DNA of 64,000 nucleotides, taken from assembly GCF_003019035.1 (NCBI RefSeq), contig NZ_CP027447.1, one strand, 5' to 3'. Positions 4,951 through 5,756 of this stretch are shown here, in pieces. Under the pieces are notes generated by a model. That model was given only the letters and a program-made list of their open reading frames with translations, ran no database searches and had not been told where the DNA came from. Position 1 is the stretch's first letter. The number at the start of each line of letters is the position of its first letter. Origin of the DNA: Escherichia coli (GTDB lineage: Bacteria; Pseudomonadota; Gammaproteobacteria; Enterobacterales; Enterobacteriaceae). The position numbers and the translations under genes were made by a program.

Positions 4951-5405
4951 AGCAGCAACCTCATTGTAATCAAGCGAGGGCGCTGAGCGTACTCGGCTAT
5001 AGAAAAACTAACTTGCAAAAATCGCTCATTTTTCATTTATCAGGCGAAAGTGGTCTCTGTTCACTCAGAAACAATCACTCCCGCTAAGTCATACCTGTTT
5101 CATCGATACATTTAAGTGATTATTACTAATGAAACAATAACATAACGGGCTTACGGCCGGTGCTCATAAAGGCAACAATCAATTAACTTTGATAAAAATA
5201 TGTTATGTAAAATAGCAACAAATTGGCTAATCTAATCAATTGGTATTATAAAAAGTGGATAAGGCGGTTCTGTTAAATAAAACACTGGTTTTTTATCTAT
5301 ACCTTTTCATTGTAATAATTGTGTTGCATAAATATTTCACAATAAATTAACAATAAAATCACCAATGATCTATGGTTTATACATAATTAACATATTTGGT
5401 TGGTT

Positions 5406-5419
5406 TTGATATAAATCAA
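5406..5419. promoter_or_regulatory. FNR-type box (TTGAT-ATAA-ATCAA) in the cydA regulatory region
   Basis: Perfect match to the FNR consensus TTGAT-N4-ATCAA read directly; cydAB is a known FNR/ArcA-regulated operon with a long AT-rich upstream region. Confidence 0.6.
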
Positions 5420-5756
5420 TTTTTAATTCTTGAAAAAAATCTGCAAAACACGATAAATTGTCGTAGATCAAATTGGTGAGATCGTGACAATTTCGCTATA
5501 AATTGATCACTGTCGAAAAATGCAAATTTGCTCAATAAAAACCTGTTTATTGTAAGGATTTTGCGGCGTAATATAATTACGGGATCAATTTGGTTTATTC
5601 ATTAACATATTTGTAACTTTTTTATCATTGTCTTTTCCTCTTTTGATGAAATGGCAACGATAGAGGCGAGCAAATAATTTTGTATTGGGGCATGCGTGTG
5701 ACCCTTTCTAACGGGGTTCACTCTCGGAGTCTTCATGCGATGAGCAAGGAGTCATG

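Follow-up and report, generated by a model that had tools for sequence, protein, structure and literature searches.

Cytochrome bd-I is the main low-oxygen oxidase of Escherichia coli, for example in the gut, and matters for gut colonisation; the cydAB promoter is a textbook case of combined control by FNR, ArcA and H-NS. Oren and colleagues are said to have described horizontal regulatory transfer in 2014. ‘Switched’ intergenic regions and horizontal regulatory transfer have also been reported by Thorpe et al. (2018; PMC5890482). In K-12, the promoters P1-P5, the FNR sites Fnr-1 and Fnr-2, ArcA sites and H-NS make up the cydAB control region, as described by Cotter et al. (1997) and by Govantes et al. 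(2000), both cited through PMC3688515 and PMC3798270. FNR represses the operon and ArcA activates it, largely by countering H-NS (Park et al., 2013, PMC3798270; Myers et al., 2013, PMC3688515). Two predicted FNR sites, at 770333 and 770385, lie under the K-12 cydA ChIP-seq peak, and the position of the cydA FNR site is listed as -53.5 (Myers et al., 2013, Table 1; PMC3688515). The mapped K-12 cydA start at 770509 (Kim et al., 2012) coincides with an anaerobic sigma-70 ChIP peak, and three ArcA regions supported by ChIP-seq (770081-111, 770260-311 and 770526-556) fall at about -590, -420 to -385 and -152 relative to the ATG.

The locus compared here with this system lies in a 64,000-nucleotide stretch of E. 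coli DNA (the window), of which positions 1-9000 are 100% identical to E. coli strain SCU-301. The cydA gene occupies 5757-7325 on the plus strand and encodes a protein identical to K-12 CydA (RefSeq WP_000884361.1); its start is 5757, where the list of open reading frames has 5754 (ATGATG). It is followed by cydB at 7341-8480, in agreement with the RefSeq annotation of the identical strain, and the DNA directly 5' of cydA is the control region of the cydABX-ybgE operon. The opposite strand carries, 5' of cydA, a 314-residue open reading frame at 4006-4950 (hyp314), a 140-residue one at 3503-3925 (hyp140), and the methylaspartate-mutase genes glmS, glmL and glmE at 1-3019. The immediate upstream neighbour is therefore the divergently transcribed hyp314, where K-12 has mngB. 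In the source strain the sucD-cydA interval spans ~24 kb and holds RtcB, hut genes, a LysR regulator, cobO, a fumarase, a transporter, methylaspartate ammonia-lyase, glutamate mutase and the two hypothetical genes; mngRAB is absent from it. The AT-rich character that the first-pass annotation of this DNA had given to the region 5' of cydA is borne out, with a GC content of 0.26-0.31 over 5101-5700 and 0.29-0.41 over 3000-5000. The two loci thus share an AT-rich control region placed 5' of an identical CydA.

Two FNR sites are predicted in this region, 52 bp apart as in K-12. The first, TTGATATAAATCAA at 5406-5419, is the perfect palindrome named in the first-pass annotation, found exactly where it had been placed. 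The 64 kb hold no other perfect TTGAT-N4-ATCAA (shuffling predicts 0.14); the site lies at -53.5 of P1 and aligns with the K-12 FNR site TTGATATTTATCAA at 770333, under the FNR ChIP-seq peak. A genuine second site, TTGTCGTAGATCAA at 5458-5471, had been overlooked; it overlaps the P1 start (-1.5) and is the homologue of the K-12 site at 770385, TTGTTCTCGATCAA. A matrix derived from 63 ChIP-supported sites (Myers et al., 2013, Table S6) gives the two window sites 19.8 and 14.4 bits and their K-12 counterparts 17.0 and 13.9 bits. Both half-sites of the first site and the GATCAA half-site of the second are invariant across about 41 Enterobacteriaceae. Elsewhere in the window, the sequence ATGATGTATATCAA at 50292-50305 matches in every base a ChIP-supported FNR site that Myers et al. 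(2013, Table S6) list for K-12 ybhK/moaA.

A weaker, half-site-like motif had also been reported near 5503. The sequence TTGATCACTGTCGAA is indeed present at 5503-5517, but it does not qualify as an FNR site: it scores 6.2 bits against a minimum of 11.8 bits among the training sites, is absent from the site list of Myers et al. (2013), and belongs to a class of two-mismatch matches of which about 34 are expected by chance in 64 kb. Checked by eye as a CRP-like site, it is a poor fit. The element scores far below FNR sites, but TTGATCACTGTCGA (5503-5517) is nearly invariant across Enterobacteriaceae; its TTGATC is invariant across genera, its centre lies at -71.5 from the main start, and TTGATC(A/G)C..TCGA is found at about -246 from the ATG in 15 of the 17 taxa scanned. 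The family-wide invariant TTGATCAC (5503-5510) may be an unrecognised activator or repressor site.

Seven ArcA boxes of at least 12 bits were found in 806 bp, where shuffled sequences would yield 0.44, using a matrix of 115 ArcA boxes (Park et al., 2013, Table S3; PMC3798270). The predicted distal pair, at 5172-5189 (minus strand, 14.0 bits) and 5189-5206 (plus strand, 17.3 bits), lies at -585/-568 from the ATG and is retained in the Escherichia species tested; the corresponding boxes are at -635/-590 in K-12 and -638/-594 in Citrobacter. A predicted middle cluster at 5310-5327, 5336-5353, 5347-5364 and 5376-5393 (13.9, 20.5, 14.5 and 16.2 bits; -447 to -381) matches the K-12 ArcA region 770260-770311 in position. 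The predicted proximal box, AAGTTACAAATATGTTAA at 5602-5619 on the minus strand (20.5 bits; -155), is homologous to the cydA3 site of K-12 at 770526-770556. The distances of these boxes from the ATG correspond to the three ChIP-supported K-12 regions, at about -590, -420 to -380 and -155. Predicted strengths differ between the window and K-12: 20.5 against 15.3 bits for the proximal box, up to 20.5 against 13.0 bits in the middle cluster, and 17.3 against 20.2 bits for the distal pair. The strongest K-12 ArcA site (U00096.2, 770022-770124) lies about 600-640 bp 5' of cydA, in a region that has no alignable counterpart in the window and is weakly similar to Citrobacter amalonaticus. An aerobic sigma-70 ChIP peak sits beside it at K-12 770039 and suggests a far-upstream promoter.

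Two promoters are predicted on the plus strand. A consensus scan places a P1-like promoter at 5430-5459 (TTGAAA and TAAATT separated by 18 nt), and the K-12 site coordinate combined with the -53.5 of Myers et al. (2013, Table 1) puts its start near 5466; its -10 element, GATAAATTG, is shared with K-12 and invariant across genera. The main promoter, at 5550-5581 (TTGTAA, 16 nt, TATAAT), is the best promoter match in the region (10/12), with a TATAAT -10 element in place of the TATATA of K-12. Alignment to the mapped K-12 start 770509 puts its start at 5581, which gives a 5' untranslated region of about 172-176 nt, as in K-12. The part of this leader at 5683-5756, with the ribosome-binding site, shows no difference among the E. 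coli compared and hardly any across genera; no Rfam family matches the leader at E <= 1, and no significant structure is predicted for it (folding z-score -0.83). The sequence GATCAA(A/T)TTGG recurs after both predicted starts (5466-5476 and 5585-5595), a recurrence that may point to an ancient duplication of a promoter unit.

The layout of these elements is conserved far beyond E. coli. Across about 41 Enterobacteriaceae the near-invariant columns are the FNR half-sites, GATAAATTG, TTGATCAC, 5537-5557, the -10 region, GATCAAT and the proximal ArcA box; 5620-5680 varies freely and 5683-5756 does not vary. In every one of the 17 taxa scanned, a perfect or near-perfect FNR site falls at about -340 to -346 and another at about -288 to -294, and a proximal ArcA box follows at about -150 to -156. 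Most of these taxa have ArcA boxes in the distal (-560 to -640) and the middle (-370 to -425) position as well. The cydAB control elements therefore hold their position across Enterobacteriaceae whatever the upstream gene.

The junction between the variable DNA and the control region lies at 5115/5116 in five independent structural contexts. Similarity to the window begins at 5116 in E. coli B2 strains, E. coli E69, Escherichia sp. E1V33 and strain HH97, and at 5111 in E. whittamii. The accessory DNA had earlier been thought to end near 4950-5050, a placement that these junctions displace; 4950 is the start codon of hyp314. To the right of the junction lie the 641 bp of 5116-5756, whose identity to E. 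coli B2, E69, E. whittamii and E1V33 is 92-93%, with another upstream neighbour in each case. These 641 bp contain three predicted ArcA-box regions, both predicted FNR sites and the two predicted promoters. Since every mapped or predicted cydAB element falls within 5116-5756, the control region is not interrupted by the neighbouring DNA, and the earlier suggestion that an insertion here could alter cydAB regulation is judged improbable. It had also been proposed that acquired DNA abuts a heavily regulated respiratory promoter; strain-variable DNA does border the FNR/ArcA region, but the label of a recent island probably does not apply, the glmS-cydA order being widespread. Taken together, these data lead us to conclude, with a probability of roughly 80%, that 5116-5756 is a vertically inherited and intact Escherichia allele of the cydABX control region.

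The DNA on the far side of this junction has been replaced repeatedly in the family. We recovered 76 enterobacterial loci with a 20-mer spanning the cydA start, a set that does not include E. fergusonii and several other Escherichia species. Among these, glmS adjoins cydA in many Citrobacter, K. oxytoca/michiganensis, S. arizonae, E. whittamii and two unnamed Escherichia species, mngB adjoins it in Enterobacter, Lelliottia, Kluyvera and C. sedlakii, and sucD does so directly in Raoultella, Kosakonia, Pluralibacter and Phytobacter. The sucD-cydA interval is thus a family-wide replacement hotspot, filled by the glm cluster, mngAB or nothing, beside a fixed cydA control layout. Among 5,426 complete E. 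coli genomes surveyed, three types of interval were distinguished. Type I (~1,130 genomes, including O157:H7 EDL933) has the glm cluster with both hypothetical genes and is similar to the window over its full length; type II (~1,108 genomes, such as ATCC 25922 and APEC IMT5155) has a TPR protein only, with similarity from 5116 at 90-92%; type III (~3,195 genomes) has K-12-type mngRAB, with similarity from 5381 at ~81%. In E. coli E69, which has a TPR-type locus, 59 bp of the glmS 5' end survive at -922 to -864 from the cydA ATG, 93% identical to window 2927-2985; this remnant points to a deletion of the glm cluster in that strain. E. coli 88-3493 carries a second mngB copy or type elsewhere in its genome, 83% identical to K-12 mngB.

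The first-pass annotation had looked to an alignment with the K-12 mngB-cydA region for an exact breakpoint. No clean breakpoint against K-12 exists: 5000-5380 is unalignable, 5381-5682 is about 81% identical in a graded, mosaic manner, and identity is complete from 5683. The region 5000-5756 is accordingly not unrelated to K-12 as a whole, the part from 5381 to 5756 being related; the unalignable part makes up about half of it. Within the mosaic, the conserved blocks fall at binding sites. Further upstream, a global alignment of 5116-5380 to the K-12 upstream region scores no better than shuffles (z = 0.6), and homology between the two is not demonstrable; weak similarity is confined to the distal ~100 bp of K-12, and is to the Citrobacter amalonaticus group. 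The positional match of ArcA boxes to K-12 within 5116-5380 could therefore reflect convergence rather than shared ancestry.

The segment 5381-5682 (plus strand) exists in E. coli as two deeply divergent alleles with a bimodal distribution of identity, which we call W, as in the window, and K, as in K-12. In 2,245 genomes it is at least 95% identical to the window and in 3,173 it is about 82% identical, with none between. In 3,178 genomes the K-12 haplotype, comprising the mngB 3' end and the spacer, reaches at least 99% identity, and its linkage to mngB is complete. The window-type allele is found at 93-99% identity in E. albertii, E. whittamii, MOD1-EC7003 and E1V33, that is, in every other Escherichia species recovered. 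The 360 nt 5' of the ATG differ from K-12 at 22% of positions; cydAB differs at 26 of 2,724 positions (99% identical) and the next 5.5 kb at 1.1%. Strain HH97 is a natural recombinant, in which a B2-type 5116-5380 is joined to the K allele with a breakpoint near 5381; this mosaic shows that recombination occurs inside the control module. The difference between W and K did not arise by insertion in the source strain; rather, K-12 and 58% of E. coli genomes probably carry a replaced version of the whole module, linked to mngRAB, and K-12 is the odd one out, differing in both promoter allele and mngRAB from all other sampled Escherichia.

Against this background we consider it highly improbable that a recent island upstream of about 4950-5050 displaced or altered the cydAB regulatory DNA. 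Such an event would account for the GC content of 0.29-0.41 over 3000-5000, for the lack of any of the upstream DNA in K-12, and for hypothetical genes that are orphan and patchily distributed. It fits poorly with a boundary at 5115/5116 and with 641 bp that, with all their FNR, ArcA and promoter elements, are shared at 92-93% despite other neighbours, and also with the glm-cydA order seen across the family. Because glmS occupies the same place in other Escherichia, Citrobacter, K. oxytoca and S. arizonae, the glm cluster at cydA is probably not a recent island, and we infer that glm-cydA is the older Escherichia arrangement. The window matches the O157:H7 EDL933 island in the order LysR-family gene, glm cluster, hyp140, hyp314, cydA, with 97.8% identity over 1-5756, but differs from sucD-cydA genomic islands in that the marks of a mobile junction are missing: neither integrase nor transposase was found, no tRNA adjoins, and the interval 2950-5450 holds no terminal repeats or target-site duplication, short repeats being present at chance level only. 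With the glm cluster found in several genera, the locus behaves less like a mobile island than like an old site whose content has been replaced again and again. Atypical composition and patchy distribution coincide only in 3363-5115, and only this hyp140-hyp314 module looks like a lineage-specific addition. E. whittamii and E1V33, which have glmS without the hypothetical genes, align to 2900-3362 (or 2900-3253) and to 5111/5116-5900 and not between, which delimits the variable piece to about 3363-5115, a low-GC insertion/deletion of ~1.75 kb (about 35% GC, range ~0.29-0.41, with hyp314 at about 0.35-0.40, against about 0.52 in the flanks). The minus-strand genes hyp140 and hyp314, both listed as open reading frames and annotated as hypothetical, have no family match in Pfam, PADLOC, NCBIfam or PHROG; homologues of hyp314 occur only in Escherichia, at 98%, 89% and 65% identity, and a search of 1.84 billion representative proteins matched it to nothing but fragments of itself. 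For neither gene was any distant homologue, or any homologue outside Escherichia, found. Ratios of dN/dS of 0.09-0.28 for hyp140 and 0.35-0.55 for hyp314 suggest that both are real, fast-evolving genes under weak to moderate purifying selection. The module may instead be ancestral to Escherichia and have been deleted in E. whittamii, E1V33 and B2, which we hold to be a serious possibility at somewhat less than even odds. It is present not only in class I E. coli but also in MOD1-EC7003 and in E. albertii, where it is contiguous over 3900-5900 at 82% nucleotide identity, and the glmS remnant of E69 shows that deletions do happen at this locus. Its absence from every non-Escherichia genus with glmS-cydA, its low GC content and its orphan genes tell against this, as do the 320 bp of unrelated sequence that E. 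whittamii has where the module would be, in place of a clean deletion.

The divergence of the promoter alleles raises a separate question, namely whether W and K are an old polymorphism within E. coli, maintained by balancing selection or driven apart by locally accelerated divergence, with K never imported. The two alleles have the same site architecture, no donor above about 80% identity was found, and intergenic DNA between binding sites evolves fast, all of which would be expected of such a polymorphism. To place the alleles, we built a neighbour-joining tree from the 360 nt before the ATG (simple p-distances, about 400 columns, 200 bootstraps). In 100% of the bootstraps the W alleles of all sampled Escherichia species group together to the exclusion of K-12, with the C. 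amalonaticus/sedlakii group as sister of that clade, in line with the species tree; W and K together form a clade in 1.5% of bootstraps only. The K-12 allele sits on a long branch, at 0.22 from the window allele and 0.19-0.21 from its nearest neighbours, and its distance from W exceeds the 0.13-0.17 that separates Citrobacter from W. The 99% identity of the flanking cydAB with an abrupt transition at 5682/5683, the near-uniformity of the K haplotype and its complete linkage to mngRAB, and the presence of mngRAB beside cydA in other genera likewise make an old polymorphism very unlikely. We favour the import of K: the K-12 state, mngRAB together with its own cydA control region, would have been brought in by recombination, with a right-hand crossover that we infer to lie at 5682/5683. 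The K-12 allele probably came from another enterobacterial lineage; among the sampled sequences none is its donor, the nearest being 18-20% different (best match about 80%).

Judged by its sequence features, the replacement of W by K is an instance of a switched intergenic region. As in the published cases, a conserved core gene lies behind two highly divergent alleles with bimodal identity, the allele tree conflicts with the species tree, and the upstream gene changes too. It differs from them in that the factor-site architecture of cydA is kept in both alleles, and the switch may change the level of expression rather than the regulatory logic. Our literature search found no paper reporting a cydA promoter polymorphism or switch. 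Relative to K-12, the window thus combines the same arrangement of sites with 19-22% divergence over 5381-5682 and unalignable DNA further upstream.

The factor binding and start sites of the W allele are predictions, drawn from matrix scores and alignment to K-12, and the control that they imply would follow the K-12 scheme. FNR bound at -53.5 and -1.5 of P1 would repress transcription from it under anaerobiosis, as in K-12, and phosphorylated ArcA at the three upstream regions would raise low-oxygen expression. ArcA would act chiefly by counteracting H-NS on the AT-rich DNA; the GC content of 0.26-0.31 over 5100-5700 is compatible with H-NS binding. Most transcripts would start about 176 nt before the ATG. 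The stronger or weaker ArcA and FNR sites of the two alleles and their different -10 elements could set different low-oxygen expression. We raise only tentatively, and with some doubt, the idea that E. coli has two functionally different cytochrome bd-I control regions, one native and one linked to mngRAB.

For the most part the locus is ordinary, a known and intact regulatory region beside variable DNA, and the divergent, probably imported promoter of K-12 emerges as a by-product of the comparison. The native allele is carried by the source strain, O157:H7, Nissle 1917, ATCC 25922 and avian pathogenic strains, and the other allele by K-12 and about 58% of E. coli. About 41% of sequenced E. 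coli, including O157:H7, therefore have a control region about 20% different from that of K-12, so that K-12 site coordinates and promoter fusions need checking before they are transferred to these strains. If the two control regions do differ in function, the K-12 model would be quantitatively invalid for most extraintestinal and enterohaemorrhagic pathogens. The two alleles also provide a natural pair with which to test how far the sequence of such a complex promoter can turn over with its sites kept in position.
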